From: Escherichia coli
Lineage (GTDB): Bacteria; Pseudomonadota; Gammaproteobacteria; Enterobacterales; Enterobacteriaceae
Reading direction: 5' to 3' (one strand)
DNA length: 64,000 nt
NCBI RefSeq assembly: GCF_044324875.1
Contig: NZ_CP172188.1
A program made the translations under genes and the position numbers. Position 1 is the stretch's first letter. Each line of letters opens with the position of its first letter. The notes beneath the pieces were generated by a model. The model had not been told where the DNA came from. It made no database searches and saw only the letters and a list, made by a program, of their open reading frames with translations. Shown here piece after piece: positions 5,666 to 63,375 of the stretch.

Positions 5666-5673
5666 TTACTGTT

Positions 5674-5695
5674 GCCCCGGCCTGTCCGGGGCTTT
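5674..5695 (+). terminator. conserved hairpin / terminator after the antirepressor gene
   Basis: ccccgg-cctgt-ccgggg followed by cttt; the same element follows modules B and C. Confidence 0.5.
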
Positions 5696-5724
5696 AACTA
5701 CTAAATAACCGGATTCTCCGCACG

Positions 5725-6009: not shown

Positions 6010-6145
6010 TTGAAAGGTCTTAACGATAGTCTGCCACGAATAGTTACTTTCACTGCCTAAAGTTATTTAATTGCATTACAAAGTGTAAATTAGTAACATT
6101 AGAATCTCACACAGCACTATAACTATATGTTTTTTATGTAAAAGG

Positions 6146-6505
6146 ATGATAATCGTGGCTACTAAAATTAAACTTGAAAACCCTCAAACTGGCGAATCAA
6201 TCACCGGTTTTTATGGTTTTTCCTGGACTACATTCTTGTTTGGTGCTTTTCCAGCTTTGTTCAGGAAAGACTTTATAACTTTTATTGGGGTATTCGTAGT
6301 GATGCTGATACTGGCATTCCTCACAGCCGGAATTGGCCCGTGGATTGCCTCATTTATCTGGGCGTTCATGTATAATAAATATTTCACCGTAAATAAGATA
6401 AAACAAGGCTTCATTTTTGCTGGTTCTCACACAGAAAATGAGTTGGCTGCTAGCAAGCTAGGATTGTCATTAAATCAAAACAACTGCAAAACTATTACCG
6501 AGTAA
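6146..6505 (+). CDS. small inner-membrane protein (two hydrophobic segments)
   Basis: 119 aa; hydrophobic stretches FSWTTFLFGAFPALF and FIGVFVVMLILAFLTAGIGPWIASFIWAF; alternative GTG start at 6155 has better Shine-Dalgarno spacing. Confidence 0.45.
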   Translation: MIIVATKIKLENPQTGESITGFYGFSWTTFLFGAFPALFRKDFITFIGVFVVMLILAFLTAGIGPWIASFIWAFMYNKYFTVNKIKQGFIFAGSHTENELAASKLGLSLNQNNCKTITE

Positions 6506-6545
6506 TAGCCAAAAAGCAGGCTTAATAGTAAGCCTGCTATGTCAA

Positions 6546-27870: not shown

Positions 27871-27896
27871 GCTTCACAAAATCTATATAGCTATTT

Positions 27897-27909
27897 TATG
27901 TTAGAAAAA
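27897..27909 (+). promoter_or_regulatory. copy of dispersed motif (TATGTTAGAAAAA) ~50 bp upstream of the module B promoter
   Basis: See findings. Confidence 0.35.
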
Positions 27910-27961
27910 TAATTTGAATTTTCGAACATAAACAATAAAATAAATCATCAAAAATTTGATG

Positions 27962-27990
27962 TTGATCTTCCATGTTTTCAGGCTTATATT
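27962..27990 (+). promoter_or_regulatory. sigma70-like promoter of module B
   Basis: TTGATC - 17 bp - TATATT; identical sequence in module D and, reverse-complemented, in module C. Confidence 0.5.
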
Positions 27991-27996
27991 CACGCC

Positions 27997-28237
27997 GTTG
28001 CAGCAAATTCTGCGACCGGGTTTAGCAGCCTGAATGTACATGCGGACAACCGCAGATATCCGATATTGCGGTATTTTTGTGTCCGTAAAACCATGTTACG
28101 CCCGAATTATGGTGGGGCGTGATGGGGAGGCTTCGGCCTGCTGGTTTCATGTACGCCAGTCTGCTAACCCCGTCACGTCCTGCCACCCGTTTAGCAGCGG
28201 GTAGCAGGTTGTTAAACCTGTACATGAGGCCGTAACT
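27997..28237 (+). ncRNA. structured leader with an embedded c4-like antisense regulator and two target sites (module B)
   Basis: Elements TTAGCAG/GTACATG at 28022-28042 and 28191-28226 (the second abuts the GAGG Shine-Dalgarno) are complementary to CATGTAC/CTGCTAA at 28148-28167; the complementarity is kept by compensatory changes in modules C and D. Confidence 0.5.
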
Positions 28238-28462
28238 ATGGTTAATGCCAATCCTTGCTCACGTCCAGAATTCATCTGGCGTTTTCACTCCCTGCAAAAA
28301 CACTGCGATCACTTCGCAATTGCCGCAACTGAAAAAGAAGCCCGTTCTCTGATCCCTGATCAGTATGGTGTTCTTACTGGTCGTTTCTCTACTTCCCCAC
28401 AACCAAACACTAATCCCTGGTATCGCAATATTACCAATCCCGGAATTGCGGAGGCACACTGA
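28238..28462 (+). CDS. small protein upstream of the antirepressor (Icd-position ORF, module B)
   Basis: 74 aa; TGATG coupling to the next gene. Confidence 0.65.
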   Translation: MVNANPCSRPEFIWRFHSLQKHCDHFAIAATEKEARSLIPDQYGVLTGRFSTSPQPNTNPWYRNITNPGIAEAH

Positions 28463-29382
28463 TGGATATCTGCATTCTTGAAAAGCCATCAATGACCAGC
28501 ATTGAGATCGCGGAGCTGGTGGGAAGTCGTCCAGATAACGTAAAAATATCAATAGAGCGCCTGGCTAAATCTGGAGTTATTCAACTTCCTGCATTGCAGG
28601 TTTTCGAAAAAATCAATAACTTAGGACTACGCCGTAGTGTCGAGGCTTACGTCTTCGAAGGCGAGCAAGGCAAACGAGACAGCATTATTGTCGTTGCGCA
28701 GCTCTCTCCCGAATTCACCGCCCGGCTGGTGGACCGCTGGCGCGAACTGGAAGAACAAGTACGCCAGCCGTTGACCGAAATAGAGATGATCGCCGCAATG
28801 GCTGCAAATGCAGTTCAGCAGCAAAAGCGGCTTCATGTTGTTGAGTCAAAGGTTAGCCAGGTTGCTGAAACCGTCGAGCAGATCAAGAAGGGCAACATGC
28901 CAGAAGGTTACATTGGCTACCGCCAGCTGGCGGCGAAATGTGGCCTGACTGAAGCCAAATGTCGCAACCTGGTTAACGCTTTCCGGATTCCCACCGATAC
29001 GCATGAGTTTTTAACTCCAGATGGTTTGCTTGCGCGACGCTCCATTGTGGCCCTGGCCCCCTTCCGGAAAGCCTTTAAGCAGGTGATGTCGGAGGCAGAA
29101 CCACGCAACAAACGCTGGTATCATCCGAAGATGGGGCTGTTTCAGGCAATCCATCATCCTGTGCCTGAAAGCCCAAAGGATAATCTGTCACTACATACCG
29201 TCAGAGAGAAGATCAGGACTGGATACGCAACAGTGTGTCGTCGTTCTTCCTGGCCTGAAGGTATATGGGTGTGGCCCGAAGGTGGATCACGAAAGCACTG
29301 GCGCACTATCCGGGACGGGAAAATCCATGCTATTGATTTAGCGCCAGAGGATATTGTTGCTACGGACTGGATTGTTAGTTAA
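28462..29382 (+). CDS. phage antirepressor-type protein (Rha-like N-domain), module B
   Basis: 306 aa; N-terminus ...MTSIEIAELVGSRPDNVKISIERL...; conserved C-terminal domain. Confidence 0.65.
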   Translation: MDICILEKPSMTSIEIAELVGSRPDNVKISIERLAKSGVIQLPALQVFEKINNLGLRRSVEAYVFEGEQGKRDSIIVVAQLSPEFTARLVDRWRELEEQVRQPLTEIEMIAAMAANAVQQQKRLHVVESKVSQVAETVEQIKKGNMPEGYIGYRQLAAKCGLTEAKCRNLVNAFRIPTDTHEFLTPDGLLARRSIVALAPFRKAFKQVMSEAEPRNKRWYHPKMGLFQAIHHPVPESPKDNLSLHTVREKIRTGYATVCRRSSWPEGIWVWPEGGSRKHWRTIRDGKIHAIDLAPEDIVATDWIVS

Positions 29383-29389
29383 TTACTGT

Positions 29390-29413
29390 TGCCCCGGCCT
29401 GTCCGGGGCTTTC
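29390..29413 (+). terminator. conserved hairpin / terminator after module B
   Basis: ccccgg-cctgt-ccgggg followed by cttt. Confidence 0.5.
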
Positions 29414-37081: not shown

Positions 37082-37083
37082 AA

Positions 37084-37106
37084 AGCCCCGGACAGGCCGG
37101 GGCAAC
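37084..37106. terminator. conserved hairpin / bidirectional terminator (shared by the structural operon and module C)
   Basis: ccccgg-acagg-ccgggg between convergent genes. Confidence 0.5.
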
Positions 37107-37111
37107 AGTAA

Positions 37112-38110
37112 TTAACTAACAATCCAGTCCATAGCAATAACATCCTCTGGAGCTAAATCAATAGCATGGATTTTCCCGTCACGGATGGTGCGCCAGTGCT
37201 TTCGTGATCCACCTTCGGGCCATACCCATACACCTTCAGGCCAGGAAGAACGACGACACACTGTTGCGTATCCAGTCCTGATCTTCTCTCTGACGGTATG
37301 CAGTGACAGATTATCTTTTGGGATTTCCGGTAAAGGATGATGGATTGCCTGAAACAGCCCCATCTTCGGATGATACCAGCGTTTGTTGCGTGGTTCTGCC
37401 TCCGACATAACCTGCTTGAAGGCTTTCCGGAAGGGGGCCAGGGCCACAATGGAGCGTCGGGCAAGCAAACCATCTGGAGTTAAAAACTCATGCGTATCGG
37501 TGGGAATCCGGTAAGCGTTGACAAGGTTGCGGCATTTGGCTTCAGTCAGGCCACATTTCGCCGCCAGCTGGCGGTAGCCAATGTAGCCTTCCGGCATATT
37601 GCCTTTCTTGATTTGCTCGACGGTTTCAGCGACTTTGGACACTTGTGCCGATACCTCGGCTACCTGGGCATTTACGGCGTTAATCCGGCGTTCATGTTCA
37701 AGATGCATTTGCGCCATTTCAGCCAGGATTTCGGCTTTTGATTTTAGCGGTGAGTGCTCCGGTATTAATTGCTTAATACGAAAATAGCTGTTTACCAGCT
37801 CACGTTGCACTTGCCAGGCCAGATCGTCATTGAATGACTTAACAATCATTAGATAACCGGACTCAGTGAACACGCGCAAACCGCGCGGGGGGACATTAAT
37901 TCCAAAAGTGTCAAAAACGCCCTTTTCAGAGTAATCAATAAGATAGGTATCTACACCATCAACAAAACGGTGCTTGTTACGATGGAAAGTTGTTTTAGCT
38001 AATCCTTTTGGTCGCTCGTGCACCTCATCAATCATCTCAAAGGTCACTACACGCTGATTTTTATATTCGAGAGTCGGGAATGGTTTGTTATTGATAGTTA
38101 CTGCGTCCAT
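37112..38110 (-). CDS. phage antirepressor-type protein with a KilA-N/ORF6N-like N-domain, module C
   Basis: Start at MDAVTINNKPFPTLEYKNQRVVTFEMIDEVHERPKG... (TAATG coupling with the upstream small ORF); C-terminal ~180 aa nearly identical to modules A and B; the ORF track extends to 38197. Confidence 0.6.
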   Translation of the reverse strand: MDAVTINNKPFPTLEYKNQRVVTFEMIDEVHERPKGLAKTTFHRNKHRFVDGVDTYLIDYSEKGVFDTFGINVPPRGLRVFTESGYLMIVKSFNDDLAWQVQRELVNSYFRIKQLIPEHSPLKSKAEILAEMAQMHLEHERRINAVNAQVAEVSAQVSKVAETVEQIKKGNMPEGYIGYRQLAAKCGLTEAKCRNLVNAYRIPTDTHEFLTPDGLLARRSIVALAPFRKAFKQVMSEAEPRNKRWYHPKMGLFQAIHHPLPEIPKDNLSLHTVREKIRTGYATVCRRSSWPEGVWVWPEGGSRKHWRTIRDGKIHAIDLAPEDVIAMDWIVS

Positions 38111-38325
38111 TAATGCACCTCCACGCAGTTCATTGGGCGGTTCCAGTAGGTCAAAACGTCCAGGGCATCGAGTTTGAAGCGAGCCGCAAAAATGCACGGA
38201 TCTGTAGGAAGAAATGAACGCGCTTCAGCCTCAGTAGCTGCCATTACGGTGATATAGGTGTGTTTTGTGCAGGAATAAAAGCGCCAGATGAATTCTGGAC
38301 GTGAGCAAGGATTGGCATTAACCAT
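38110..38325 (-). CDS. small protein upstream of the antirepressor (Icd-position ORF, module C)
   Basis: 71 aa; paralogue of 4509-4724. Confidence 0.65.
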   Translation of the reverse strand: MVNANPCSRPEFIWRFYSCTKHTYITVMAATEAEARSFLPTDPCIFAARFKLDALDVLTYWNRPMNCVEVH

Positions 38326-38566
38326 AGTTACGGCCTCATGTACAGGTTTAACAACCTGCTACCCGCTGTCAAACAGGTGGCAGGGCGTGACAGGGTTGAC
38401 AGACTGGCGTACATGAAACCAGCAGGCCGAAGCCTCCCCATCACGCCCCACCATAATTCGGGCGTAACGTGGTTTACGGACACAAAAATACCGCAATATC
38501 GGAAATCTGCGGATGTCCGCATGTACATTCAGGCTGTCAAACCTGGTCGCAGAATTTGCTACGACG
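38326..38566 (-). ncRNA. structured leader with a c4-like antisense regulator (module C)
   Basis: Minus-strand elements TTGACAG/GTACATG (targets) and CATGTAC/CTGTCAA (antisense) in the same arrangement as module B. Confidence 0.5.
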
Positions 38567-38571
38567 GCGTG

Positions 38572-38600
38572 AATATAAGCCTGAACATCTGGAAGATCAA
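38572..38600 (-). promoter_or_regulatory. sigma70-like promoter of module C
   Basis: Reverse complement of TTGATC-17-TATATT. Confidence 0.5.
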
Positions 38601-38653
38601 CATCAAATTGTTGATGATTTATTTTATTATTCATGTTTGAAAATTCAAATTAT

Positions 38654-38666
38654 TTTTCTAACACAA
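38654..38666 (-). promoter_or_regulatory. copy of dispersed motif upstream of the module C promoter
   Basis: TTTTCTAACACAA on the plus strand = TTGTGTTAGAAAA on the minus strand. Confidence 0.35.
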
Positions 38667-45548: not shown

Positions 45549-46975
45549 CGATTACAGAATTACTGGACAAATTTAACGCTAAGTTAAATGAAAACACATG
45601 GTGGTCACGATTTGTAAATAGTCAGTTTGTGCAGATGCACGCTATATTCGGATCACAGCTTATTTATATTGCCCGTACATTTGCAAGCCGCGGCCTCACT
45701 GAGGGACTTATTTCAACGGCTACGCGCCGCTCAAGTATTTTAGCGGTTGCTGAAGACCGTAGCTACGTAGGGCGATTTGTTAGTGCTTCATACGGAACAA
45801 CGTCTATAACCAATAAAACTGATCGGGATATTACATTACCAGCCGGGGCTGAATTGCTTGCCAATGACCAAACACCTTTGGCAATTATTAACAGTGTTGT
45901 AATTCCTGCTGGAGGAACTGTTTCTGGCGTAGAAACTAAACAGCATGAAGCTGTTAGCGTTACATTTGATATTGAGAAGGAAACTTTATTTCTGACATTG
46001 TTGCTTTCCAGAGAGTTAACAAAAGAAGTCTCTAGCCTGGATGTTTATGTTATTACAGATGGCGTAGAAGAAAAATGGACATATAACCCATTATTTAGAA
46101 TGTCCAGAGACAAGAGTAAGCACTATTCATTGGCATATAAACCTACAGAACAACTTGGAGTCAAGTTTGGTGATGGTTCTATGGGTATGATGCCTCCAGC
46201 AGGCTGTCAGGTTCGAATCGATGTTATGGCTAGCCTTGGCGACTATACTTTGGCTGAAGGACAAAAGTTAGAACCGGCTGGAAATATCGCTCAATATGTG
46301 GAGTCACTTGAGTTTAAAACTGATTCGATCATTACCGGTGGTAGTGGTATGGAAACTACAGAAGAAACTCGAAATCGTGCTCAGTATTATGTTGCATACG
46401 ATGAACAAGTGGTATGGGGCGGTGATTATCGCCAATTCATTCAGAATGTTGTTCATGGAACTTCATGGTTGAACGTTTGGGGCGAAGCGTTACAAGAGAA
46501 AATAACTGGGTTTGACGTTCGAAACATCAACAAAATTTTCTTTTGCGGACATAAGCCGGGTGTAAGCCAGGCTCAGCTAAAATCAGAAATACTGAAAGCT
46601 CTAGAGAATGTTCCAAATGAGTTGAACAAGCGGTTCGAGTATGTAGATACAAATGAACAGCCATTTACTATAAATTTTACAGGTATTGCACGTAAAAATG
46701 TTCTGATAGACGACGCTCAAAATGCTATTAAAGCAGCATTGGAAGATAATTTTGGTCGTGATTCGTCATCATTTAGTTTATTACTACAGAGTGATGATGA
46801 TTCTCAGCAATGTTATGCACAGGTAAAAGTTAAAGATATTTGGCGAGTAATAGAATCGCTGGATATGTTTCTCTCTTATGACATAACAATACAAAATATG
46901 AAAGATGCAGTTTACTTTAATGACTTCATTTATCTTGACGTGAAATCTTCCACGTTCAGCATTTCTTACCCGTAA
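45545..46975 (+). CDS. baseplate J-like protein
   Basis: 476 aa, directly after the gp25-like gene with overlapping start; order and size typical. Confidence 0.4.
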   Translation: MTITELLDKFNAKLNENTWWSRFVNSQFVQMHAIFGSQLIYIARTFASRGLTEGLISTATRRSSILAVAEDRSYVGRFVSASYGTTSITNKTDRDITLPAGAELLANDQTPLAIINSVVIPAGGTVSGVETKQHEAVSVTFDIEKETLFLTLLLSRELTKEVSSLDVYVITDGVEEKWTYNPLFRMSRDKSKHYSLAYKPTEQLGVKFGDGSMGMMPPAGCQVRIDVMASLGDYTLAEGQKLEPAGNIAQYVESLEFKTDSIITGGSGMETTEETRNRAQYYVAYDEQVVWGGDYRQFIQNVVHGTSWLNVWGEALQEKITGFDVRNINKIFFCGHKPGVSQAQLKSEILKALENVPNELNKRFEYVDTNEQPFTINFTGIARKNVLIDDAQNAIKAALEDNFGRDSSSFSLLLQSDDDSQQCYAQVKVKDIWRVIESLDMFLSYDITIQNMKDAVYFNDFIYLDVKSSTFSISYP

Positions 46976-46985
46976 TGAGGTTAGC

Positions 46986-47831
46986 ATGAAAGATAATTGG
47001 CTTAAGGAACGATTAACTAAAGTAAAGCAGGATTCACATCTCTGGAGTGCCTTTATAGACGCTTTACAGGATGTCTGGAATGAGGCAGTAGAACCAATAT
47101 TAACAAGAATAAGTAACAGAAAATCCTTCTTCACTATGGACAGTGAGGATATGGATGCCCGCATTGCTGAATACGGGCGTTTTTTCGTTATCACTGAAAA
47201 AGATAATGCCCGTAGGCCAATGCTTCTGGCGCAGCGTTTAGATGAAGTGCACTTTAAAGGTACTATCTTGCCTATTGAGCAGACATTCTGGCGTGAATTC
47301 GGTTGTATTCCTGTTAGTTGGGAACCGCTGTATGCACCTGTAAATATAGAAAAACACCCCTATGGTTCATATTTTGCGACCGAAATAGAAATACCTACGG
47401 CACAGGCTCAATTCGGTGAGTTCTTCCTGACATCAAGGGGGCTGGTCGTTGTTGATCAGAACAAGCTATATCGCTCATATGGAGAGCAGGATAAAGAAGC
47501 CGCTGTGCAGAAATTGTTATCTGACTTCGAAACAGTAATAGCCCCTTTGTTGCCATTGCATATTGTTTTTGATGGCGTCTCGTTTCGGCTTAGTGCTGTA
47601 TTCCCTGAAGTGGCAGAAATACTAAATTGCCTGTCTACGGATGTTTCGGTAATTGAAGGTGTTTATGTTACTGAGAGTATGGCTGATATGCTATCCCGTA
47701 GTGATACCTCCTGCCAGGTAAACAATATTTCTCTTAACGCCATACCGAACAGAACGGCAGAAAAGCAATTACATCTTGATGTAACCCCACTCGATGCGTG
47801 GCCTTTGGATTACCACCTTCAACCTGTTTAA
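46986..47831 (+). CDS. baseplate / tail-fibre attachment protein (tentative)
   Basis: 281 aa ORF in the baseplate operon. Confidence 0.35.
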   Translation: MKDNWLKERLTKVKQDSHLWSAFIDALQDVWNEAVEPILTRISNRKSFFTMDSEDMDARIAEYGRFFVITEKDNARRPMLLAQRLDEVHFKGTILPIEQTFWREFGCIPVSWEPLYAPVNIEKHPYGSYFATEIEIPTAQAQFGEFFLTSRGLVVVDQNKLYRSYGEQDKEAAVQKLLSDFETVIAPLLPLHIVFDGVSFRLSAVFPEVAEILNCLSTDVSVIEGVYVTESMADMLSRSDTSCQVNNISLNAIPNRTAEKQLHLDVTPLDAWPLDYHLQPV

Positions 47832-47925
47832 TAATTCTTCCCCCAAATGCGGGGGAAGAACAACGGAAATCACAAACTGAGCATACTCTCCTTTGGTTCA
47901 TTGCTTATGAAGGGGCTATGTTCGT

Positions 47926-48372
47926 ATGGCTGAAAATTTAAAGGCAAGAGATGGTAACCGCCTGTATAAGGCGCAATTGCTTTCCTACTATTATTCACGC
48001 CGCGCTGAGTCGGCGATCGGCAAAGGTGCGCGTTTTGTTATCTCTAAGGCGTATTGGTGCAAATCTAGTCTGGTAACTGCTAATGGTGCAGGAGGCTGGA
48101 ATATAGCGGACATTCCACTCGATTTTAAATTGAGTAACGCTCAACAGTTTGCTGTGTCCGATCTGATATTGTCCAGTGTGGATGGGATTATCACTATCAA
48201 TGCAGCCTTCCCTCAAGAAAGAATGCCGGATAACACGCCTTACGACTTTAACACGCTTGTGCTTGTGGATGCTGAGGAACAGGCTTTTGCTGTGCTTTGC
48301 ACCCAGCAAGACACCCTCTATAAAGGTAAACGTTACAGTATTCTCATGACAATCGAGCAAGTTGAGGGTTGA
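47926..48372 (+). CDS. hypothetical tail protein
   Basis: 148 aa; stop overlaps the tail-fibre start. Confidence 0.35.
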   Translation: MAENLKARDGNRLYKAQLLSYYYSRRAESAIGKGARFVISKAYWCKSSLVTANGAGGWNIADIPLDFKLSNAQQFAVSDLILSSVDGIITINAAFPQERMPDNTPYDFNTLVLVDAEEQAFAVLCTQQDTLYKGKRYSILMTIEQVEG

Positions 48373-51257
48373 TTATGGGTGCTGATAAAACGAACAACAT
48401 AATGACACTATCCTCTGGTGTCTCACAGCCGTTGCTTGCTGATGTTCAATATTTCGAACTCTATAGTAGTTCGGCTCTTAACAGAAAACTTAAAAATATT
48501 GTTTTGCCGGGCTTTTACTGTGGATTTGAACCGGTTCCCGGCACAGGGTTGAGTGTCCGTATAACTTCTGAAAACTCAGAAGGTAAAGGGGCTGCTTCAG
48601 TAGATGTAAATAATGTTCAGATATCCGTTCAGCAAATAGAAGATGTGACTGTCTCGGTAAAGGCAGGGGCTACCAACATTATTGTGCTGGAAGCCAATTT
48701 TGAACATGGTGTAAAAACGACACAGGTAGATAGCGCATCTTCTGTCAGTGCTGCAAGAATTTACGCGCGTACGGACAATACTATTGGGCAGAATCAAATT
48801 GAATTATGTCGAGTTATCGTGCCTAGCGGCGCAACGGCTGTGACTAAAGAAATGATTGTGCTTAAATACCGGGTTAACCGTGCTGTTGGTGTCGAATTCT
48901 CTAATGAAATAAGCAGTACAGAAGAAAGAAAAGCGGCTACACCTCTGGCTGTCAAAACTCTCCATGATTTGGTTGATACAAAAGCCCCGATCAACAGCCC
49001 GAATCTGACAGGAACGCCAACAACACCAACAGCGCCACAGGGGACTAATAATACCCAGATCGCAAGCACGGCTTTCGTTATGGCCGCGATTGCCGCACTT
49101 GTAGATTCGTCACCTGATGCACTTAACACTCTGAACGAACTGGCCGCCGCGCTTGGTAATGATCCGAACTTTTCCGCGACAGTGACTCGCCTGATTGGAG
49201 AAAAAGTTGCCAAAGATGGCGACACCATGACAGGTAAACTTAATCTGCCGCAGACCTCTGCATTCGGCATCAATACCAACAACAGACTGGGGGGGAACTC
49301 TCTGACGCTGGGCGATCACGATACCGGAATTAAACAGGAAGGAGACGGCGTATTGTCCGTGTTCGCCAACGGCCAGCGTGTGTTCCTTTTCACGGAAAGA
49401 AGTATTACCTCATTAAAAGAGCTTCTGATAGGGGATGCACGTTATAGCACCGGTGGTGATGTGTATGGCAGTCAGTGGGGAGACGGTTGGTTGAGTTCCT
49501 GGTTAAGTGCTCGCTTTGCAGAGTGTGCCAACGCCAGCCATAACCACCCTTGGAGCCAGATTACCGACGTACCAGCAGCCAGCCTCACTCAGAGCGGCAT
49601 TGTACAACTTAGTAGTGCCATCAACAGCACTTCTGAAACATTAGCTGCAACTCCAAAAGCGGTTAAAGCTGCATACGATCTAGCAGCCGGAAAGGCACCA
49701 TCCAGTCATACACACCCCTGGAATCAGATCACTGGTGTGCCAACAGCTTCATTGACAGCGAAAGGCATCACTCAGCTCAGTAGTGCTACTAACAGCACGT
49801 CTGAAGTGCTGGCCGCCACACCAAAAGCTGTCAAGGCTGCATATGACCTGGCTAACGGGAAGTATACAGCCCAGGATGCAACCACGACACAAAAAGGGAT
49901 AGTTCAGCTCAGTAGCGACACCAACAGCACTTCTGAAACATTAGCTGCAACTCCAAAAGCGGTTAAAGCTGCATACGATCTAGCAGCCGGAAAGGCACCA
50001 TCCAGTCATACACACCCCTGGAATCAGATCACTGGTGTGCCAACAGCTTCATTGACAGCGAAAGGCATCACTCAGCTCAGTAGTGCTACTAACAGCACGT
50101 CTGAAGTGCTGGCCGCTACACCGAAAGCGGTTAAAGCTGCATACGATCTAGCAGCCGGAAAGGCACCATCCAATCATATACATCCCTGGAATCAGATCAC
50201 TGGTGTGCCAACAGCTTCATTGACAGCGAAAGGCATCACTCAGCTCAGTAGTGCCACTAACAGCACGTCTGAAGTGCTGGCCGCTACACCGAAAGCGGTT
50301 AAAGCTGCATACGATCTAGCAGCCGGAAAGGCACCATCCAGTCATACACACCCCTGGAATCAGATCACTGGTGTGCCAACAGCTTCATTGACAGCGAAAG
50401 GCATCACTCAGCTCAGTAGTGCTACTAACAGCACGTCTGAAGTGCTGGCCGCTACACCGAAAGCGGTTAAAGCTGCATACGATCTAGCAGCCGGAAAGGC
50501 ACCATCCAATCATATACATCCCTGGAATCAGATCACTGGTGTGCCAACAGCTTCATTGACAGCGAAAGGCATCACTCAGCTCAGTAGTGCCACTAACAGC
50601 ACGTCTGAAGTGCTGGCCGCTACACCGAAAGCGGTTAAAGCTGCATACGATCTAGCAGCCGGAAAGGCACCATCCAATCATATACATCCCTGGAATCAGA
50701 TCACTGGTGTGCCAACAGCTTCATTGACAGCGAAAGGCATCACTCAGCTCAGTAGTGCCACTAACAGCACGTCTGAAGTGCTGGCCGCTACACCGAAAGC
50801 TGTCAAGGCTGCATACGATCTGGCAAACGGAAAACAACCGGCAGATGCCACGCTCACTGCTCTGGCAGGACTTGCCACTGCAGCAGATCGGTTGCCTTAT
50901 TTTACCGGAGCAGACCGCGCAGCGCTGACAACCCTTACAGCTATTGGTCGCGCTATTATCGCTAAGGGCAGTATAAAAGATGTCCTCAATTACCTTGGTT
51001 TAGGAGAAGGCTCGGCGCTACCCGTTGGTGTGCCTGTTCCATGGCCCACCGCCACACCGCCAGCAGGCTGGTTAAAGTGCGACGGGCGCGCCTTTACAAA
51101 AGAACAATATCCTGTTCTGGCCAGAGTCTACCCGACCCTCCGTCTTCCCGATTTACGCGGTGAGTTTATCCGTGGATGGGACGACGGGCGAAAAGTTGAT
51201 ACAGGGCGCGATTGCTTTCACGGCAAGGGGTACAAGTTTTTCTCATTACGGAGGTAA
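48369..51257 (+). CDS. tail fibre protein with variable C-terminus encoded in the invertible segment
   Basis: 962 aa; about seven tandem ~60-aa repeats containing ATPKAVKAAYDLA...H.HPW.QITGVP (classic fibre repeat); the last ~85 aa lie inside the invertible segment. Confidence 0.7.
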   Translation: MIMGADKTNNIMTLSSGVSQPLLADVQYFELYSSSALNRKLKNIVLPGFYCGFEPVPGTGLSVRITSENSEGKGAASVDVNNVQISVQQIEDVTVSVKAGATNIIVLEANFEHGVKTTQVDSASSVSAARIYARTDNTIGQNQIELCRVIVPSGATAVTKEMIVLKYRVNRAVGVEFSNEISSTEERKAATPLAVKTLHDLVDTKAPINSPNLTGTPTTPTAPQGTNNTQIASTAFVMAAIAALVDSSPDALNTLNELAAALGNDPNFSATVTRLIGEKVAKDGDTMTGKLNLPQTSAFGINTNNRLGGNSLTLGDHDTGIKQEGDGVLSVFANGQRVFLFTERSITSLKELLIGDARYSTGGDVYGSQWGDGWLSSWLSARFAECANASHNHPWSQITDVPAASLTQSGIVQLSSAINSTSETLAATPKAVKAAYDLAAGKAPSSHTHPWNQITGVPTASLTAKGITQLSSATNSTSEVLAATPKAVKAAYDLANGKYTAQDATTTQKGIVQLSSDTNSTSETLAATPKAVKAAYDLAAGKAPSSHTHPWNQITGVPTASLTAKGITQLSSATNSTSEVLAATPKAVKAAYDLAAGKAPSNHIHPWNQITGVPTASLTAKGITQLSSATNSTSEVLAATPKAVKAAYDLAAGKAPSSHTHPWNQITGVPTASLTAKGITQLSSATNSTSEVLAATPKAVKAAYDLAAGKAPSNHIHPWNQITGVPTASLTAKGITQLSSATNSTSEVLAATPKAVKAAYDLAAGKAPSNHIHPWNQITGVPTASLTAKGITQLSSATNSTSEVLAATPKAVKAAYDLANGKQPADATLTALAGLATAADRLPYFTGADRAALTTLTAIGRAIIAKGSIKDVLNYLGLGEGSALPVGVPVPWPTATPPAGWLKCDGRAFTKEQYPVLARVYPTLRLPDLRGEFIRGWDDGRKVDTGRDCFHGKGYKFFSLRR
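49540..50830 (+). repeat. tandem ~180-bp in-frame repeats in the tail-fibre gene
   Basis: Near-identical units with few substitutions (for example SSHTHPW versus SNHIHPW). Confidence 0.8.
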
Positions 51258-53036
51258 TTTCGACATTGGGTCTGGTTATTCAATCAATAACTACGACCAA
51301 TAGTTGTTTCTAACAACCAAGATTTTCCCGACCTTCATGAGGGCCTTTAACGAGGTGATGGGGTTAACATGTAACCATTCGTCCTGGTAACATTGTTTAA
51401 TTATATGGTATGCAGGCTATAAACGTTGGTTTAGGAGAAGCGGCGCTATGCGTTGGTGTGCCTGTTCAGTGGCCCCCGCCACACCGCCATTGCAGGCTTA
51501 ATTAAATTGTGAGGGCGCGTTTACAAAAGAACAATATCAGTTCTGGCCAGAAAACCCGACCCTCCGCTTCCCGATTTAGCGGTGCGATATCCGTGGATCA
51601 CTATGACGAGACGAAAGGTTGATACACGGGCGTGCCTCTTTGGAGTTTCGCCCTTGGGACTATCGTATCCGGTTTTGATGCGCCGATGCATACCGGAGAT
51701 TTCAGGTTACGTGGTCGGCTGCCACACAAACGGATGGTGACGCATTTAACCTGATCACCTGGGGGTATAAATGGCAAAAAGTGGATATTTGATGCATCCC
51801 AACCGGTGCACAAAGATATGACTGGCGGACTTACCACCAGCAAAACAGCCTGCCACAATATGGGATTTAACTATATCGTGAAGGCGGCGTATACCGTTAC
51901 TGAACGGCATAGAGCCGCAGTGGCGCTGGCCAGCTGCAACGCCAGAAACCTTGTGATATCCAGGCGTTCAGCTCGTCGATATAATCCAGCACGGCGGGCA
52001 GTTTTGCCGTTTCTTCCAGTTTCAGACTGCGACCTGCCCGCCGTTTGGGTTGATAGGTCGACGGCTTCACGCCTGGATCCACCCGGCACTGGCGTTGCAG
52101 TTGGCAAGTCTCCAGCTCTGCGGCTCTATGCCGGCTCAGTATCACGCCGCCCACGATTACCGTTCCAGGTATCCCATGGTGTGGCAGGCTGTTTTGTGGT
52201 GGTGTCCGCCGGTAATCACCCGGTTGAGGTGCATCAGAACGGGGTTCCCGTTTTCCGTTTATACCGTCTCCCGCGGTGATTAGGGTTACATGCGTCCCAA
52301 ATCCGTTCAGTGTGGCAGTCCGAAACCACGTAACCCGATATCCTCCGGTATGCATTATCATCACGAACCGGAGTACGATAGTCCCAAGGGCGAGATACTG
52401 AAAGTAGCGCACGCCCGGTATCAACCTTTCGTCCGTCATATCCACGGATAAACTCACCGCGTAAATCGGGAAGACGGATCGGTTAGACTCTGGCCAGAAC
52501 AGGATATTGTTCTTTTGTAAACGCGCCCTCACAATGTAACCAGCCTGCTACGGCGGTGTGACGGTGATACCCTTCGCATACAGGCTTCTGATAGAGGTCA
52601 GAATAGTAGCCTGCATACCATTGTCTGACATTACCACGATGTTACGAGGATCGCTGAATGTTGTCCCGTCCGGCATTTTGAAGGCCCTCACGAAGGTCTG
52701 TAATGGAATCTTCATTGTTGAATCCCATGCCGACTATCCCCGAGGTTCCCGTAGTGTCCTGGTTATAATAATCCAGCATTGCTGTTCTTAACAGCGTTGC
52801 CCCTTGTGCGGACAGCAACTTACGTCCTGTATCAACTTTGCGCCCGTCGTCCCATCCACGGATAAACTCACCGCGTAAATCGGGAAGACGGAGGGTCGGG
52901 TAGGCTCTGGCCAGAACAGGATATTGTTCTTTTGTAAAGGCGCGCCCGTCGCACTTTAACCAGCCTGCTGGCGGTGTGGCGGTGGGCCACGGAACAGGCA
53001 CACCAACGGGTAGCGCCGAGCCTTCTCCTAAACCAA
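50995..53036. other. invertible tail-fibre segment (Cin/Gin-type) with ~210-bp inverted repeats plus two degenerate internal repeat copies
   Basis: IR-L 50995-51205 and IR-R 52826-53036 are near-identical inverted copies beginning with TTGGTTTAGGAGAAGG; degenerate copies at ~51425-51640 (direct) and ~52440-52570 (inverted, partial); invertase gene starts 67 bp beyond IR-R. Confidence 0.6.
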
Positions 53037-53102
53037 CGTTTATCTCTCAAATCCTCCCCACATTATCTCAGTACTTTAACCACTCAAAAGGGAGTATTTT
53101 TA

Positions 53103-53675
53103 ATGCTGATTGGCTACATACGTGTGTCAACAAATGACCAAAACACAGATTTGCAACGCAATGCATTAATGTGCGCAGGATGTGAACAGATTTTTGAGGA
53201 CAAAATGAGCGGAACCAAGTCGGAACGACCAGGCCTGAAACGCGCTTTAAAGTGCCTTAAAAGAGGGGATACATTGGTGGTCTGGAAGCTGGATCGGTTG
53301 GGTAGAAGAATGAAACACCTCATTGCTCTCACAGAAGAGCTACGCGCAAAAGGTGTCAATTTTCGCAGTCTGACGGATTCAATCGATACCAGCACTCCGA
53401 TGGGAAGGTTCTTTTTTCATATGATGGGTGCACTGGCAGAAATGGAGCGTGAACTGATAGTTGAGCGCACGCTGGCAGGACTGGCTGCTGCGCGATCACA
53501 AGGAAGAGTTGGAGGACGTCGCCCGAAACTGACGAAGGAGCAGCATGAGCAGATCGCAAGATTGCTCCAGAAAGGGTATGACAGAAAGCGGCTGGCAATT
53601 ATCTATGATATTGGACTGTCAACGATCTACCGCTATCACCCTGTTGGGACTGTCATAACGCAACCTGAAATGTAA
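53103..53675 (+). CDS. serine DNA invertase (Hin/Gin/Cin/Pin family)
   Basis: MLIGYIRVSTNDQNTDLQ..., RPGLKRAL, LVVWKLDRLGR, C-terminal HTH; 190 aa. Confidence 0.85.
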   Translation: MLIGYIRVSTNDQNTDLQRNALMCAGCEQIFEDKMSGTKSERPGLKRALKCLKRGDTLVVWKLDRLGRRMKHLIALTEELRAKGVNFRSLTDSIDTSTPMGRFFFHMMGALAEMERELIVERTLAGLAAARSQGRVGGRRPKLTKEQHEQIARLLQKGYDRKRLAIIYDIGLSTIYRYHPVGTVITQPEM

Positions 53676-53891
53676 TTCTTTTTCAAATAATGAAACGCCG
53701 CGTGGATGCCATTTATCGCACAAGATAGAGTGCATTTATCGCGCGGCGCATCATCATTTGTTGATATGCGAATGTATCCAATAAGCATATGTCTCCCTTG
53801 TATGCTAAGGATACGATCCTAGAAGATGTCCTGTAAGGAAATAACAAACTGACTAAGTTAGTGGCGCATTAGATGTTATTTCTGGAGGGGT

Positions 53892-54218
53892 ATGTTTGCA
53901 GATTATGAAAATCTGGCTGTAGTAGTCATAACATCCCTACTAAGTGGAACCGGCGTATTCCTTCTCGGAGTTAGAGACGGGCGCATTTCTGCGTCCCTGC
54001 TCAATCTTGCGAGTGAATTGTTTACTGCGGTAACAGCCGGGCTTGCGGGGTATGGGGTGGCGGTTAGCCAAGAATGGCCTGAAGGTATCATTTTCTGCGT
54101 TGTTCTGATTGCCAGTAACAACGGTAGTGAAATTTTACAGGGCTTGAAGTCCAGAGCTAGTAACGTCTTGAATCTCTTAAGCGTAATAGCGAATGGGGGA
54201 AAAGGTGGAGAGAAATAA
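53892..54218 (+). CDS. holin-like small membrane protein (LydA-position)
   Basis: 108 aa with ~3 hydrophobic segments; first gene after the invertase, as in the P1 lydA position. Confidence 0.4.
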   Translation: MFADYENLAVVVITSLLSGTGVFLLGVRDGRISASLLNLASELFTAVTAGLAGYGVAVSQEWPEGIIFCVVLIASNNGSEILQGLKSRASNVLNLLSVIANGGKGGEK

Positions 54219-54664
54219 TGGGTAACTTTGGAAATTATTTCATTTTTATCATGGCATTTGTTGCCATCATTGACCGTTTCATTTTTCGTCGCAAGAGTGT
54301 TGAGATTTTGAGTATTGGTGACGCTGTAGTGAAAGAATCCGCTATAGCATTTCCTGTTTCGCTACGTGTTAAGCGAAGCTGGGTCAGCAATGCTCAAATC
54401 GAATATTGGTTGCAAGACCTGAAAAATCCATCTGTGGTTATTTCAGGGAAAACGCGACCAGTTGACGCCTCAAAACGCGGTGAGAGAGAAGAGTATTTGC
54501 TCATCGATACGAAATATCTTGAGCCAACGAAGTGGGATCTGAAAGTCACATTGACTAACGGTAACTGCCGACTGAATCCGCTTTATCGCATTTTCCCTAT
54601 CAATGACTGCATAGAGCGCCAGTTTACGATCGAAAAGCGTAAAGGAGACTGGGATGTCAAATAA
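54218..54664 (+). CDS. membrane-anchored protein (antiholin / LydB-position, tentative)
   Basis: 148 aa; N-terminal hydrophobic segment NYFIFIMAFVAIIDRFIF; ATGA coupling. Confidence 0.35.
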   Translation: MGNFGNYFIFIMAFVAIIDRFIFRRKSVEILSIGDAVVKESAIAFPVSLRVKRSWVSNAQIEYWLQDLKNPSVVISGKTRPVDASKRGEREEYLLIDTKYLEPTKWDLKVTLTNGNCRLNPLYRIFPINDCIERQFTIEKRKGDWDVK

Positions 54665-55274
54665 GAATAATTATGTTCTTCTTAATTATGATGAGTTAAA
54701 CGAAAAGGGGCTGGCAAAACTCGTCAAAGAAATCAGCAAAGGTGGTTACAAGATAGCGAGGGTGATCCCTGCAAGTAATGGCAGGAAGAAAGATGGGATC
54801 ATGACGCGCACGTTTACCCTTATTGGTATTGATGAACAGACAATGGAAGTTCAGGTTAACGATACCGGTGATATATCTGGGATCAAACTGAATGGTAAAA
54901 CAGTACCGTTCAAGCCAGTAAAAACAATGTCGGCTTTGGGGCAATCTCTTGCGGCTTTATTTAATCGCGGAGCAACTTCTTTCCAGAAGTCATTAGCTCG
55001 AAAACTTGCTCGTGCAGCAAAAAATATTGATGACGGAAATAAGAAGCGGCAGGGAGTTAAATCTAACGCTCAGAAATTAGCTGAAGCGAAAGAATCACGT
55101 GATGCACTCCGTGAAGATATCGCTAATGCTAACGACAAACTGTCTAAACTCCAGAGCAAGTCAGACAAAGTAATACAAGATACGGGTAACGTTAAAGCTG
55201 CCTTGTCTCAGGAAGTAGCTAAGACACGTGCTCTTAAAGAAGAAATCGCGCGCCTGGAGGATGAGCATGATTAA
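54654..55274 (+). CDS. hypothetical protein (Hdf-position, tentative)
   Basis: 206 aa; coiled-coil C-terminus; assignment by synteny with the P1 darA operon as I recall it. Confidence 0.3.
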   Translation: MSNKNNYVLLNYDELNEKGLAKLVKEISKGGYKIARVIPASNGRKKDGIMTRTFTLIGIDEQTMEVQVNDTGDISGIKLNGKTVPFKPVKTMSALGQSLAALFNRGATSFQKSLARKLARAAKNIDDGNKKRQGVKSNAQKLAEAKESRDALREDIANANDKLSKLQSKSDKVIQDTGNVKAALSQEVAKTRALKEEIARLEDEHD

Positions 55275-57192
55275 CAATCCTTTACGAATTAATATTCAGT
55301 CTACTTTTGCTGATACGATCCCCGGCTATATGCCAAGTCGCTGGTCTTCAGAAGAATTAAGCGAAGATGACCTGATTTTTGAGGCGGCGACCTTAGAAGA
55401 TATTGAGCTTGCCTATATGGGCAATGAAATTCTGGTTGTGTCTGACGAAGCTATGTTTGAGTCCATAACTACAACCAGAATTCGGTTAGCTCAAACAATG
55501 CGAGCTTTCGTCCGTGCGCTGAATCGTGGCCTGAATGGTACGAATATTATGGCAGGGACTGATGAAGCTGGGACCGATGAAAATGGACGTAATTGTATTG
55601 GAGGTGCGATTATCGGTCGTGTACGTCGGGTAGCTAATATCCCTGTTTTGACCGCGCAGATACCGCTTACTGACGGGCAGAGTACAAGCATAATTTTCCA
55701 CTCTCCAACAGCTGACGGGGCAAAAATAAAGAGTAACGACGAGCTTGTTGCATTTCAGTTTTTACTTAATAAACGTAACGTAACTCACGTTGTCGCCCCG
55801 ATTGGTGGGAGAGATGTTTCTTTAAGCCAGGTATGCCAGGCGCTATCTAATTTGATTGAGCGTAACAGCGAAAAATTTAAGAAAGCAAAAGAGCGCCAGG
55901 ACAAAATGAAGGCAGATATTGAGAGTTATCTCAATGAAGCAGATAAACTGGCAGAAGAACGGTCAATAATGATTGATCAGGTGGAAGTTGCGCAACGTGG
56001 GCTGACTGAAAAGCGTGCTGCTCTTACGGAGATGCAAAAAAAACTTGATGCCCAGAAAGCCATCAACGAGGAATTACAAGCAAAACGCGATAAATTGTTG
56101 TCTGCTAAAGGTGAAAAAACGAAAGAACGAGCGTTTAGTGACCAGCTGCGACATGTAAAACATAATCTTGCCATTGACGGAAAAACAGTGCTGGATAATG
56201 GCGCTGAAGTTAATTATGTCACGTCCGGCAGTGATAATTTCGTTACGATAGTAGCACCTGAAGGTAAATTCAGTATTGATGCCAGTGCTGTCAAAGGAGG
56301 CAGTTTGGCAGATGCTGCAACTAAATTACTTAAAGCCTACCGAGAGCATAACGCAGATAAATATAAAGTTGATGTGTTACCAGGCCAGCAGGAAGACCCC
56401 GAACCACCACAGACAGACCCCGAGACGAACCCAGTATCACAACCAGAGAGCCAGGATGTAGGTAAATACCACTATGCACTTCAATCTCGCCCGGCTGGTG
56501 TTGGTGCTGTGCCGGATGGAAATAAAGCCGTGCTTGATCGTCCTGACCAGGCTGATCAGTATTACGAATATGCTCGTCACGGTATCATTACGTATGACCG
56601 TAAACTGACAGATGAAGAAGTCAGCCAGTACGAGTTGCTCTATCTTCCTGATGAAGATGAGCTGAAAGATTTTGCAGGCCAATTGGTTGTGTCCAGCATG
56701 TCGAAACATATTGATGGCTATGTAGACCTGTTTGGCAGTGACCTGAAAACATTCAAGGCGCAAGTGAAAATTCTTTTCCGCAAAGCGTTTCCAAATGTGG
56801 CGTATCCACTTGGTGATGGGGAGAACCTTTTCATTATGGACGTGTATAACGCCCTTCAAAATCATTCAAGCGAAGTAAAAACAGAGCATGTGGTTGAGCC
56901 GGAATCACAACCACAACCAGCACCAGAACAGGAGCCGGAGCCAGAAGAAGTTGGTGAATCAGCAAGTGAAGCTGATCAGGAAGCAGATAAAGCGCTGGAG
57001 TACCTGAAATCCGTGCCGGAGCAGTTTACATCCCGCGATCTGACGGTCATCAGTGCTGAACTTGATCATGTGCAGGAAGCAGCGAACGCTCTAATCAGTG
57101 CAGGTCGATACGACGAGAACGAAGCCACTGTGGGTGCAGCAGTTGACTACCTGATCAATATTCTGGCTGAAATTCAGCAGGGAGGTGTTTAA
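55267..57192 (+). CDS. large protein in the DarA position (possible antirestriction / capsid-associated protein)
   Basis: ~641 aa; assignment by synteny and size only (P1 DarA is ~639 aa as I recall it); start overlaps the upstream stop. Confidence 0.3.
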   Translation: MINNPLRINIQSTFADTIPGYMPSRWSSEELSEDDLIFEAATLEDIELAYMGNEILVVSDEAMFESITTTRIRLAQTMRAFVRALNRGLNGTNIMAGTDEAGTDENGRNCIGGAIIGRVRRVANIPVLTAQIPLTDGQSTSIIFHSPTADGAKIKSNDELVAFQFLLNKRNVTHVVAPIGGRDVSLSQVCQALSNLIERNSEKFKKAKERQDKMKADIESYLNEADKLAEERSIMIDQVEVAQRGLTEKRAALTEMQKKLDAQKAINEELQAKRDKLLSAKGEKTKERAFSDQLRHVKHNLAIDGKTVLDNGAEVNYVTSGSDNFVTIVAPEGKFSIDASAVKGGSLADAATKLLKAYREHNADKYKVDVLPGQQEDPEPPQTDPETNPVSQPESQDVGKYHYALQSRPAGVGAVPDGNKAVLDRPDQADQYYEYARHGIITYDRKLTDEEVSQYELLYLPDEDELKDFAGQLVVSSMSKHIDGYVDLFGSDLKTFKAQVKILFRKAFPNVAYPLGDGENLFIMDVYNALQNHSSEVKTEHVVEPESQPQPAPEQEPEPEEVGESASEADQEADKALEYLKSVPEQFTSRDLTVISAELDHVQEAANALISAGRYDENEATVGAAVDYLINILAEIQQGGV

Positions 57193-63100: not shown

Positions 63101-63129
63101 TTGATCTTCCATGTTTTCAGGCTTATATT
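63101..63129 (+). promoter_or_regulatory. sigma70-like promoter of module D
   Basis: TTGATC-17-TATATT, identical to module B. Confidence 0.5.
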
Positions 63130-63135
63130 CATGCC

Positions 63136-63375
63136 GTCGTAGCAAATTCTGCGACCAGGTTTGACAGCCTGAATGTTAGTGCGGACAACCGCAGATTTCC
63201 GATATTGCGGTATTTTTGTGTCCGTAAACCGCGTTACGCCCGAATTATGGTGGGGCGTGATGGGGAGGCTTCGGCCTGCTGGTTTCACTAACGCCAGTCT
63301 GTCAACCCTGTCACGTCCTGCCACCTGTTTGACAGCGGGTAGCAGGTTGTTAAACCTGTTAGTGAGGCCGTAACT
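63136..63375 (+). ncRNA. structured leader with a c4-like antisense regulator (module D)
   Basis: TTGACAG/GTTAGTG at 63161-63181 and 63329-63364; complementary CACTAAC/CTGTCAA at 63286-63305. Confidence 0.5.

Follow-up and report, generated by a model that had tools for sequence, protein, structure and literature searches.

Organisation of the tail-fibre locus

The window, a stretch of 64,000 nt from Escherichia coli contig NZ_CP172188.1, is a D6/P1-like phage-plasmid. Its tail-fibre gene runs into a segment that lies between inverted repeats and is followed by an invertase gene (Table 1). On both sides of a garbled stretch within this segment, the tip and invertase cassette is 98–100% identical to intact cassettes of E. 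coli ST131 prophages and of the plasmids pF374-2 and pGF4-B.

Table 1. Features of the tail-fibre locus (positions in nt of the window)
Feature	Position	Strand	Basis
Tail-fibre constant N-terminal part, P1 S-like	48369–50994	+	ORF list; PHROG tail-fibre families, phrog_2631 E=0
Fibre ORF as read	48369–51257	+	ORF list; end ...DCFHGKGYKFFSLRR
Tandem 168-nt (56-aa) units inside the fibre gene, 5.5 copies	49904–50833	+	TRF
Crossover site s1, TCCTCAATTACC TT GGTTTAGGAGAA	50983–51008	+	Core TT 50995–50996; comparison with annotated P1 cixL
Left inverted repeat	50992–51208	+	217 nt, 98%; codes for first ~72 codons common to every tip (LGLGEGSALPVGVPVPWP...)
Tip A, unique part	51209–51418	+	Alignment to JJ1886; intact translation from pF374-2
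Site s2 (second direct site) with its ~217-nt repeat copy	51414–51640	+	Core TT 51426–51427
Tip B, unique part, garbled in the window	51641–51892	+	Alignment to JJ1886; PHROG; intact translation
Tail-fibre assembly chaperone, U-like, garbled in the window	51897–52517	-	JJ1886 5106–5720, phrog_105 E=3e-87; alignment
Putative mirror image of s2 and its repeat	52391–52605	.	Seen as partial inverted copy 52434–52570
Probable collapsed mixed-orientation consensus (assembly artefact)	about 51300–52660	.	Self-alignment, three-way alignments, in-register 10-mers, allele test
Tip C, including right inverted repeat 52823–53039	52517–53036	-	Repeat search; alignment; intact translation
Site s3', top strand TTCTCCTAAACC AA CGTTTATCTCTC	53023–53048	-	Core AA 53035–53036; inverted relative to s1 and s2
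Serine DNA invertase, Gin/Cin family, intact, 190 aa	53103–53675	+	PDB; PHROG

The invertase was most similar to Gin among solved structures (PDB 4m6f/3uj3, E=8e-94 over residues 1–181) and matched phrog_125 ('DNA invertase') with E=4.5e-94. Its C-terminus aligns with the DNA-binding domain of Hin (1hcr). The motifs GYIRVSTNDQ, with the catalytic Ser9, and LDRLGR are conserved, as in the small serine recombinases of the Din family (Gin, Cin, Hin, Pin and Min). The gene is the only recombinase gene at the locus; it adjoins the segment and reads away from it, as in Mu. Nucleotides 19–90 of the gene (53121–53192) are homologous to the annotated enhancer of P1 cin, a Fis-dependent cis element in the 5' part of that gene, with 75% identity. 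This likeness can be explained by coding constraint alone, because the first 120 nt of the gene are identical to the same extent (75%). The preliminary description had proposed an invertase-driven switch of the tail-fibre tip, which is borne out by this intact Gin-like enzyme. A lack of inverted-orientation reads together with an inactivated invertase gene had been named beforehand as evidence against the switch; the gene is intact, and the consensus bears the signature of the inverted orientation.

In intact relatives, the segment carries alternative 3' ends of the fibre gene together with a chaperone gene, as in other Din-family systems. Tips A, B and C measure 144, 155 and 172 aa from the crossover and are all in frame, the chaperone has 204 aa and belongs to phrog_105, and all three tips match the C-terminal end of the fibre families phrog_523/3100. 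With NCBIfam, neither the tips nor the chaperone could be assigned to a family and the invertase had only sub-threshold matches; PHROGs and PDB were informative instead. In the window itself, the tips and the chaperone are legible only through a mosaic. Compared with JJ1886, tip A has a frameshift at 51213 and is garbled from about 51300. Tip C is clean from about 52690 onward, while 2 nt are deleted and 6 nt inserted in its disrupted upstream part, and a minus-strand ORF at 52642–53001 reads ...KLLSAQGATLL...NIQRSS.

Crossover sites and isomers in related genomes

The two arms of the inverted repeat lie about where the preliminary description had placed them. They are 98% complementary over 217 nt and stand 1,614 nt apart, which is far beyond chance. 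The motif TTGGTTTAGGAGAAGG opens both arms, at 50995 and as reverse complement ending at 53037. It had been suggested as the crossover site, and the comparison with annotated P1 cixL (CAATCCTAAACC TT GGTTTAAGAGAA) agrees with this: the inner half-site GGTTTAGGAGAA has the same base as GGTTTAAGAGAA in 11 of 12 positions, and the core TT is shared. Din-family crossover sites consist of two 12-bp half-sites with an identical 2-bp core between them. The inner half and the core TT are common to the 26-bp sites s1, s2 and s3', with s3' opposed to the other two, so that the suspicion of more than two sites, as in Min, held.

Site s2 has an in-frame counterpart at 4628–4846 of the JJ1886 locus (L004), where it opens an annotated 'phage tail protein' (4632–5099). 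In the window, the repeat search found this direct copy in fragments at 51423–51640. A third repeat copy had indeed been noticed there before, and was regarded as degenerate by decay; it is rather a real site, probably corrupted in this assembly by consensus mixing. The outer half-site of s2 is unreliable in the window since its printed form is a chimera of both orientations.

Intact isomers are on record in JJ1886 (isomer d), pF374-2 (isomer a) and pGF4-B (isomer c), in cassettes that are otherwise 96–100% identical. Orientation thus differs among relatives, namely, between JJ1886 on the one hand and pGF4-B and the ST131 strains ZH063 and SaT040 on the other. Both orientations are therefore seen directly among relatives and indirectly, through the mosaic, in the window. 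A query from the constant part to tip C was covered to at least 80% at one place in 272 complete E. coli genomes, and among the best 30 records listed, ST131 chromosomes included, the junction was unbroken at 99.4–100% identity. As some isomers on record require s2, this site is evidently used, contrary to the assumption that only one pair of sites is still active. Judged by these relatives, the true locus reads as a multiple-inversion system of the Min type with three sites, three tips, four isomers and one chaperone gene. It has more than two sites and overlapping segments, and several isomers (a, c and d) are realised.

Mosaic interior of the invertible segment

When compared with its reverse complement, the segment 50992–53039 aligned along its entire 2,048 nt (73.9% identity, 1,105 bits, centre 1024.5). 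In JJ1886, the counterpart of equal length matched its own reverse complement at the true repeats only. In the three-way alignment with pF374-2/pGF4-B, 1,661 interior columns were divided into 625 matching both orientations, 649 matching the forward and 321 the inverted one only, and 66 matching neither; hence, one orientation explains 970 of the 1,036 columns that do not match both. With JJ1886 and the columns of the whole segment, the respective numbers were 1006, 638, 350 and 101. When shuffled, reversed or complemented interiors, which are the valid controls for this alignment, took the place of the inverted partner, the columns matching neither climbed to 250–331. A control in which the inverted interior was rotated by 30–300 nt is uninformative because MAFFT re-registered the sequence. 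The interior shares 76.8% of its bases with the forward isomer and 52.7% with the inverted one, although the two isomers are only 35.6% alike, and in-register 10-mers from the forward orientation alternate with those from the inverted one in stretches of about 10–40 nt. Isomers d (A,B) and c (B',A') jointly account for 1,251 of 1,614 interior bases, to which the other two add nothing. This result comes from an in-register test of all four configurations, which told the s2-based isomers apart; a histogram of k-mer offsets cannot separate them, as the paralogous repeats themselves give offsets of ±410–440.

These observations make it highly probable that the window contains an intact tip switch of the Gin/Cin type, the seemingly decayed interior of which is an artefact with both orientations merged into one consensus; this origin of the mosaic we infer from the sequence alone. 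The 190-aa invertase would recombine the direct sites s1 and s2 and the inverted site s3', each at the start of the repeat of about 217 nt that codes for the common beginning of the tip. Inversion between s1 or s2 and s3' would join the constant shaft (about 875 codons) in frame to tip A, B or C, and in the resulting isomers inversion between s1 and the then inverted s2 should also be possible. Four isomers are expected, with tip C co-oriented with the single chaperone gene. By analogy with Gin, Hin and Cin, the reaction presumably takes place in a Fis- and enhancer-dependent invertasome with 2-nt staggered cleavage at the TT core and 180-degree subunit rotation. The sequenced DNA would have contained two isomers in roughly comparable amounts, differing by inversion of the whole 2,048-nt segment between s1 and s3'. 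If assembler or polisher stacked both on one backbone, a base-level mosaic full of indels would result, with a frameshifted third repeat copy, a mirror-image fourth copy, stop-riddled tips and truncated ORFs. Two observations count against a merged consensus: about 4% of the interior columns match neither orientation, and the forward isomer dominates near both segment ends, which a simple mixing model does not specifically predict.

The fourth repeat copy had been described as a separate degenerate element at about 52440–52570. A partial inverted copy is present at 52434–52570, but it is not independent, because it lies at the mirror position of the third one: with the segment centre at 52015.5, 51426–51640 is mirrored to 52391–52605. 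In the bin 52400–52499, 59 columns were inverted-only and four forward-only, and the in-register 10-mers of this region derive from the inverted configuration only. The copy was apparently supplied by the inverted orientation, the forward isomer having no real element there. The alternative fibre ends reported at 15 and about 59 codons past the repeat are correct as ORFs; as biological C-termini they fail, since they seem to be frameshift artefacts. The first interior lesion is a 1-nt deletion at 51213 (GATCTGC in relatives, GAT-TGC in the window). The early stops and the degeneracy are due to indels present in this assembly alone.

Genuine decay is very unlikely. It would mean that a larger Min-like system has lost its interior tips, its chaperone and two of the four repeat copies to pseudogenisation, with the outer pair of sites alone still active. 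The deposited interior does lack a long intact ORF, both fibre frames stop early, and related loci do have pseudogenised or truncated tail-fibre pieces, such as the fibre CDSs annotated as partial in JJ1886. However, decay cannot produce a sequence in which an intact relative and its reverse complement alternate, true to register, in steps of 10–40 nt. The change in identity is also abrupt and falls exactly at the recombination sites, so that the mosaic is confined to the invertible segment. The left flank differs from pF374-2 by one mismatch in 2,723 nt (46221–48943) and the right side by 11 mismatches in 3,781 nt (52823–56603), i.e. 99.7–99.96% identity with no indels in 6.5 kb. In contrast, gap openings in the interior occur about every 15–30 nt, with 73 in about 1,000 nt at 51423–52399. 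Decay would be expected to leave heritable changes that the other orientation does not explain and that are comparable with the divergence of the flanks, which is not the pattern seen here. The idea of stop-interrupted, decayed tips is not supported; the intact relatives have three in-frame tips, and the interior is better read as a two-orientation consensus.

Decay is further opposed by the garbled version occurring in no other public record of the collections searched. Megablast with 50800–53700 against phages, PLSDB plasmids and complete E. coli genomes returned no high-identity match including the garbled interior, and a 45-mer from the garbled part had 0 exact matches in IMG/VR and the GTDB representative genomes. 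The best plasmid match, the unannotated S. Typhi plasmid LT905089.1, was considered as a carrier of the same artefact and rejected, since its self-reverse-complement match is a true repeat of 229 nt only.

The reads of the opposite isomer could also stem from a cassette elsewhere in the genome, for instance in a P2-like prophage remnant of the ST131 type, which would still make the mosaic an artefact. Positions 50386–53754 have a chromosomal counterpart of 98–100% identity, a prophage cassette that 59 complete E. coli genomes carry, so that co-residence of both cassettes in one host is plausible. Such recruitment is nevertheless unlikely: differing flanks would anchor long reads, and plasmid-type alleles prevail over ST131-chromosome-type (JJ1886) alleles by 30:1 in the forward and 9:1 in the inverted component, both of which therefore come from one locus. 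A second copy of the plasmid-type cassette may still conceivably have supplied the inverted component.

Errors at the library or read level, such as fold-back chimeras among the long reads or SMRTbell adapters that were missed, do produce sequence that is symmetric to its reverse complement independently of any invertase. As the source of the mosaic they are extremely improbable. The limits of the symmetric zone coincide exactly with the invertase inverted repeats, and its centre with the midpoint of the segment; nothing would make fold-back chimeras keep to these boundaries. Moreover, the inverted isomer really exists, having been sequenced independently. Just as hard to credit is a physically real sequence, i.e. 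a plasmid lineage in which the two orientations of the segment have become interleaved in vivo, true to register. It would need an unknown process, for example faulty exchange or repair of strands in the invertasome when plasmid copies of opposite orientation meet there.

The merged consensus was simulated crudely with noisy reads, MAFFT alignment and a majority consensus, as a plausibility check of a generic consensus rather than a real assembler. Mixtures of 70:30 or more unequal remained clean, and a forward/inverted mosaic arose at 60:40 to 50:50; the top self-reverse-complement match of the simulation spanned the terminal repeats only, compared to the full length in the window. There is a precedent in a shufflon, where two equally abundant variants led to a poorly mappable region that required special polishing (PMC6158609). 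As the mosaic implies both orientations in the sequenced DNA, the switch is probably active, and the garbled consensus would itself be evidence of flipping in the sequenced culture, with two isomers at roughly comparable abundance. For annotation, a pseudogene-like, indel-rich stretch that lies exactly between invertase sites and is self-complementary about its midpoint should be interpreted as a consensus collapsed from mixed orientations rather than as decay; aligning the stretch with its own reverse complement serves as a one-line diagnostic.

Relation to known inversion systems

Tip switching, multi-site versions included, has been known since Mu, P1 and p15B, so the locus is of a known kind and adds little biologically. 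The three-tip, single-chaperone cassette of the Gin type in P2-like prophage remnants and D6-like phage-plasmids may not have been formally described, which is more likely than scrambling in vivo and would add no more than a new member to a known kind.

With the Mu G segment and Gin, the locus shares the position and direction of the invertase gene as well as tail-collar-fibre C-termini with a U-like chaperone. Mu has two sites in 34-bp repeats and two S/U pairs, whereas here three sites lie in coding repeats of about 217 nt, with one chaperone for three tips. The C segment and Cin of P1/D6 are resembled in the D6-like replicon type, in R-like and S-like genes upstream and lydA/lydB/darA downstream, and in crossover sites nearly identical to cixL of P1. 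In P1/D6 the segment measures 4.2 kb and contains the pairs S/U and S'/U', with cin directed towards cixL; here, the segment is only 2.0 kb long, the invertase is oppositely oriented and a third site is present. D6-like plasmid prophages, too, are on record as switching fibre tips by means of an invertase (PMC6799933).

As in the R64-type shufflon, multiple inversion gives alternative C-termini of a surface adhesin. The shufflon employs the tyrosine recombinase Rci and sfx sites. Membership in this group is ruled out by the serine invertase and the 26-bp cix-like sites found here; the shufflon sites are 19-bp repeats, and a shufflon breaks assemblies when the population is mixed (PMC6158609).

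With Min of plasmid p15B, the locus has in common that a plasmid prophage related to P1 encodes a Gin/Cin-family serine invertase, that the crossover sites number more than two and the invertible segments overlap, and that different 3' ends can be joined to a constant fibre gene. In Min the sites number six and the isomers are far more numerous, unlike the three sites and four isomers of this locus. Min itself is a Din-family invertase (Sandmeier et al. 1990 PNAS and Iida et al. 1990 Mol Microbiol, as cited in PMC5903667 and PMC6906374). As a further difference in this comparison of organisation, the cassette sequence found here is one common to P2-like prophages, and the invertase is closest to Gin among solved structures.

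Type of switch and its recombinase

The locus belongs to the Din-family tail-fibre switches and, within these, to the multi-site (Min) type. The preliminary description had also considered a shufflon; this was rejected because shufflons use Rci, whereas the recombinase of the locus is a serine invertase. Switches of this kind are already known: among the modules of D6-like plasmid prophages, the tail-fibre inversion regions have been reported to vary most (PMC6799933), and P1-like elements to carry Cin/Min systems (PMC6906374).

The window is part of a D6/P1-like phage-plasmid. Between 30000 and 50000, it showed 98-99% identity to E. coli plasmids with sizes of ~92-94 kb and 95% to phage D6. 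The genes are arranged in the order baseplate, tail protein, R-like, tail fibre, invertible segment, invertase, holin, LydB-like, Hdf-like and DarA-like head protein. Four C4 antisense RNA/ImmI-like loci were found within the 64 kb (4244-4454, 27984-28190, 38373-38578 on the minus strand and 63123-63328), compared to only two in phage D6; each has c4-a1b1 targets or isrK, followed by icd/ant-like ORFs. The C4-type loci 27896-29412 and 37082-38666 form an inverted pair (88-95%) around ~7.7 kb with genes for capsid, sheath and tube.

The invertase is intact. It aligned with Gin, the closest relative among solved structures, over residues 1-181 (E=8e-94), and with P1 Cin without internal gaps and with a conserved catalytic-serine motif. 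While cin of P1 and D6 reads towards cixL (P1 locus 5661-6221 compared), the invertase of the window reads away from the invertible segment. Mu gin likewise reads away from its segment. In all three crossover sites (s1, s2 and s3'), the inner half-site is GGTTTAGGAGAA and the core is TT; annotated P1 cixL has GGTTTAAGAGAA / TT. As a homologue of Gin, Hin and Cin, the enzyme would be expected to bring inverted sites together in a Fis/enhancer-dependent synapse and to cut at the 2-nt core, after which its subunits would rotate. Identity to the P1 enhancer is 75% in the homologous stretch, which is no higher than in the surrounding coding sequence.

Features of the switch in the window, in the ST131 chromosome JJ1886 and in the four segment arrangements (isomers); tips A, B and C are the alternative ends of the fibre
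Feature	Position or arrangement	Strand or orientation	Remarks
Tail fibre	48369-51257		
Copies 1 and 2	50992-51208 / 52823-53039	inverted pair	217 nt, 98% complementary, 1,614 nt apart
Copy 3	51423-51640	direct	fragmented
Copy 4	52434-52570	inverted	partial
s1	core 50995-50996	direct	
s2	core 51426-51427	direct	
s3'	core 53035-53036	inverted	
Invertase	53103-53675		
JJ1886 fibre tip A		plus	annotation
JJ1886 tip B		plus	annotation; starts at second direct site
JJ1886 tail-fibre assembly gene		minus	annotation
JJ1886 tip C (third tip)		minus	annotation
JJ1886 recombinase		plus	annotation
Isomer d	A,B		expresses tip A; intact in JJ1886
Isomer c	B',A'		expresses tip C, chaperone downstream; intact in pGF4-B
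Isomer a	B,A'		expresses tip B; intact in pF374-2
Isomer b	A,B'		expresses tip A

Extent of the damage and intact relatives

No highly identical record covering the region was found among phages or in PLSDB. Of the complete E. coli genomes, 59 have a collinear counterpart with precisely the same length (2,901 nt in both); most of them are ST131, and JJ1886 is among them. Identity between the window and JJ1886 is 98-100% at 50800-51300 and 52700-53700; between ~51300 and 52600, it drops to 64-84% in 100-nt bins (37% in the bin at 52400), and indels are numerous. Compared to the closest plasmid, pF374-2, the flanks contain one mismatch in 2,723 nt and 11 mismatches in 3,781 nt, both without gaps, and 73 gap openings fall into the about 1,000 nt of 51423-52399. 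The system had been taken for a decayed one. This did not hold, as all of the damage lies between the recombination sites and none outside them, which is not the pattern of gene decay. The decayed look, the source of the apparent interest, does not appear to be a property of the DNA.

The proposed inverted repeats were confirmed, with copies 1 and 2 as the genuine repeats at the segment ends. The third and fourth copies are present as well, but neither is what it had been taken for. Copy 3 represents the true internal direct site s2 with its repeat, which is in frame in the relatives, where tip B starts, and it is apparently corrupted in the window through admixture of the inverted orientation. 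Copy 4 is not an independent element but a ghost of s2 from inverted reads, because it sits at the mirror position of copy 3 (51426-51640 is reflected to 52391-52605 about the segment centre 52015.5) and its bin follows the inverted orientation (59 inverted-only versus 4 forward-only columns). Similarly, the two short C-terminal readings exist in the sequence, but they are not alternative tips. The 15-codon tail of the fibre ORF results from a 1-nt deletion at 51213, as seen in the alignment to relatives, and the 59-codon alternative from small indels near 52640-52690. The intact tips comprise 144, 155 and 172 aa counted from the crossover and all end in ...RPR(N/S)IA(F/L)NYIVRA(A/V).

A ~3.4-kb cassette of fibre end, invertible segment and invertase (50386-53754; JJ1886 locus 3585-6955) is, outside the garbled stretch, 98-100% identical between the D6-like phage-plasmid and a P2-like prophage remnant of E. 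coli ST131 that lies beside aroA/serC; in phage D6 itself, the cin/C segment is of the P1 type. These sequence comparisons point to a recent cassette exchange between unrelated temperate phages. In the ST131 prophage (JJ1886 locus 3578-5099), the annotation gives the upstream fibre gene as partial pseudogenes, and aroA/serC directly adjoin the locus. This suggests a defective prophage, which has yet retained an intact invertase and a segment whose orientation differs among ST131 strains.

Probable mixing of orientations in the consensus

The 2,048-nt segment aligned end to end with its own reverse complement (73.9% identity, 1,105 bits), centred on the midpoint, while the intact JJ1886 segment of 2,048 nt aligned with its own only at the true repeats. 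In a three-way alignment with both JJ1886 orientations over the whole segment, 1,006 columns agreed with both, 638 with the forward only, 350 with the inverted only and 101 with neither. With the more closely related pF374-2/pGF4-B sequence, the corresponding values for the 1,661 columns of the interior were 625, 649, 321 and 66. Almost all bases of the segment thus fit at least one of the two orientations; ~4% of the interior columns agree with neither. Shuffled, reversed or complemented 'inverted' interiors as controls raised the 'neither' class to 250-331. At 76.8% identity to the forward isomer and 52.7% to the inverted one, the interior resembles both, although these two share only 35.6% with each other. 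Alignment-free, in-register 10-mers revealed alternating forward and inverted runs of ~10-40 nt across the interior.

Only two of the four isomers were needed, namely d (A,B) and c (B',A'), the latter being d fully inverted; jointly they cover 1,251 of the 1,614 interior bases. Plasmid-type alleles prevailed over JJ1886-type ones by 30:1 and 9:1 in the two mosaic components; since both are plasmid-type, they stem from the same locus and not from a chromosomal paralogue. A crude simulation with noisy reads and majority consensus gave a similar mosaic at 60:40 to 50:50 and a clean sequence at 70:30 or more unequal mixtures. Mixed shufflon variants have been reported to yield a poorly mappable, hard-to-polish region (PMC6158609). 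From the sequence, we infer that the garbled interior is an assembly artefact, and several independent tests agree on this. The consensus can still serve as a diagnostic pattern, and it indirectly indicates switch activity in the sequenced culture.

Isomers, chaperone and fibre shaft

Four isomers are reachable, and three of them (d, a and c) are intact in public records. Isomer a can be linked to c or d only through recombination at s2. The constant-to-tip-C junction was found as one unbroken piece with 99.4-100% identity in the best 30 records listed, among them ST131 chromosomes such as ZH063 and SaT040, and 272 complete genomes contain a stretch that covers at least 80% of this query. In pF374-2 and pGF4-B, there is a single U-like chaperone gene for three alternative tips; it is co-oriented with tip C, and neither tip A nor tip B is followed by a chaperone gene. 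In pF719-4, there are two assembly genes instead of one.

At 49586-50857, a 168-nt (56-aa) unit is repeated 5.5 times in tandem within the fibre shaft, with 95% identity, and there is also a 300-nt higher-order repeat. Since closely related fibres are not equally long (962 aa in the window, 1,176 aa in pGF4-B), the copy number is variable or possibly mis-assembled. Within the shaft, ~650 nt (48944-49595) had no megablast counterpart in pF374-2 or pGF4-B, while both sides are 97-99.9% identical to them; the shaft is therefore mosaic.
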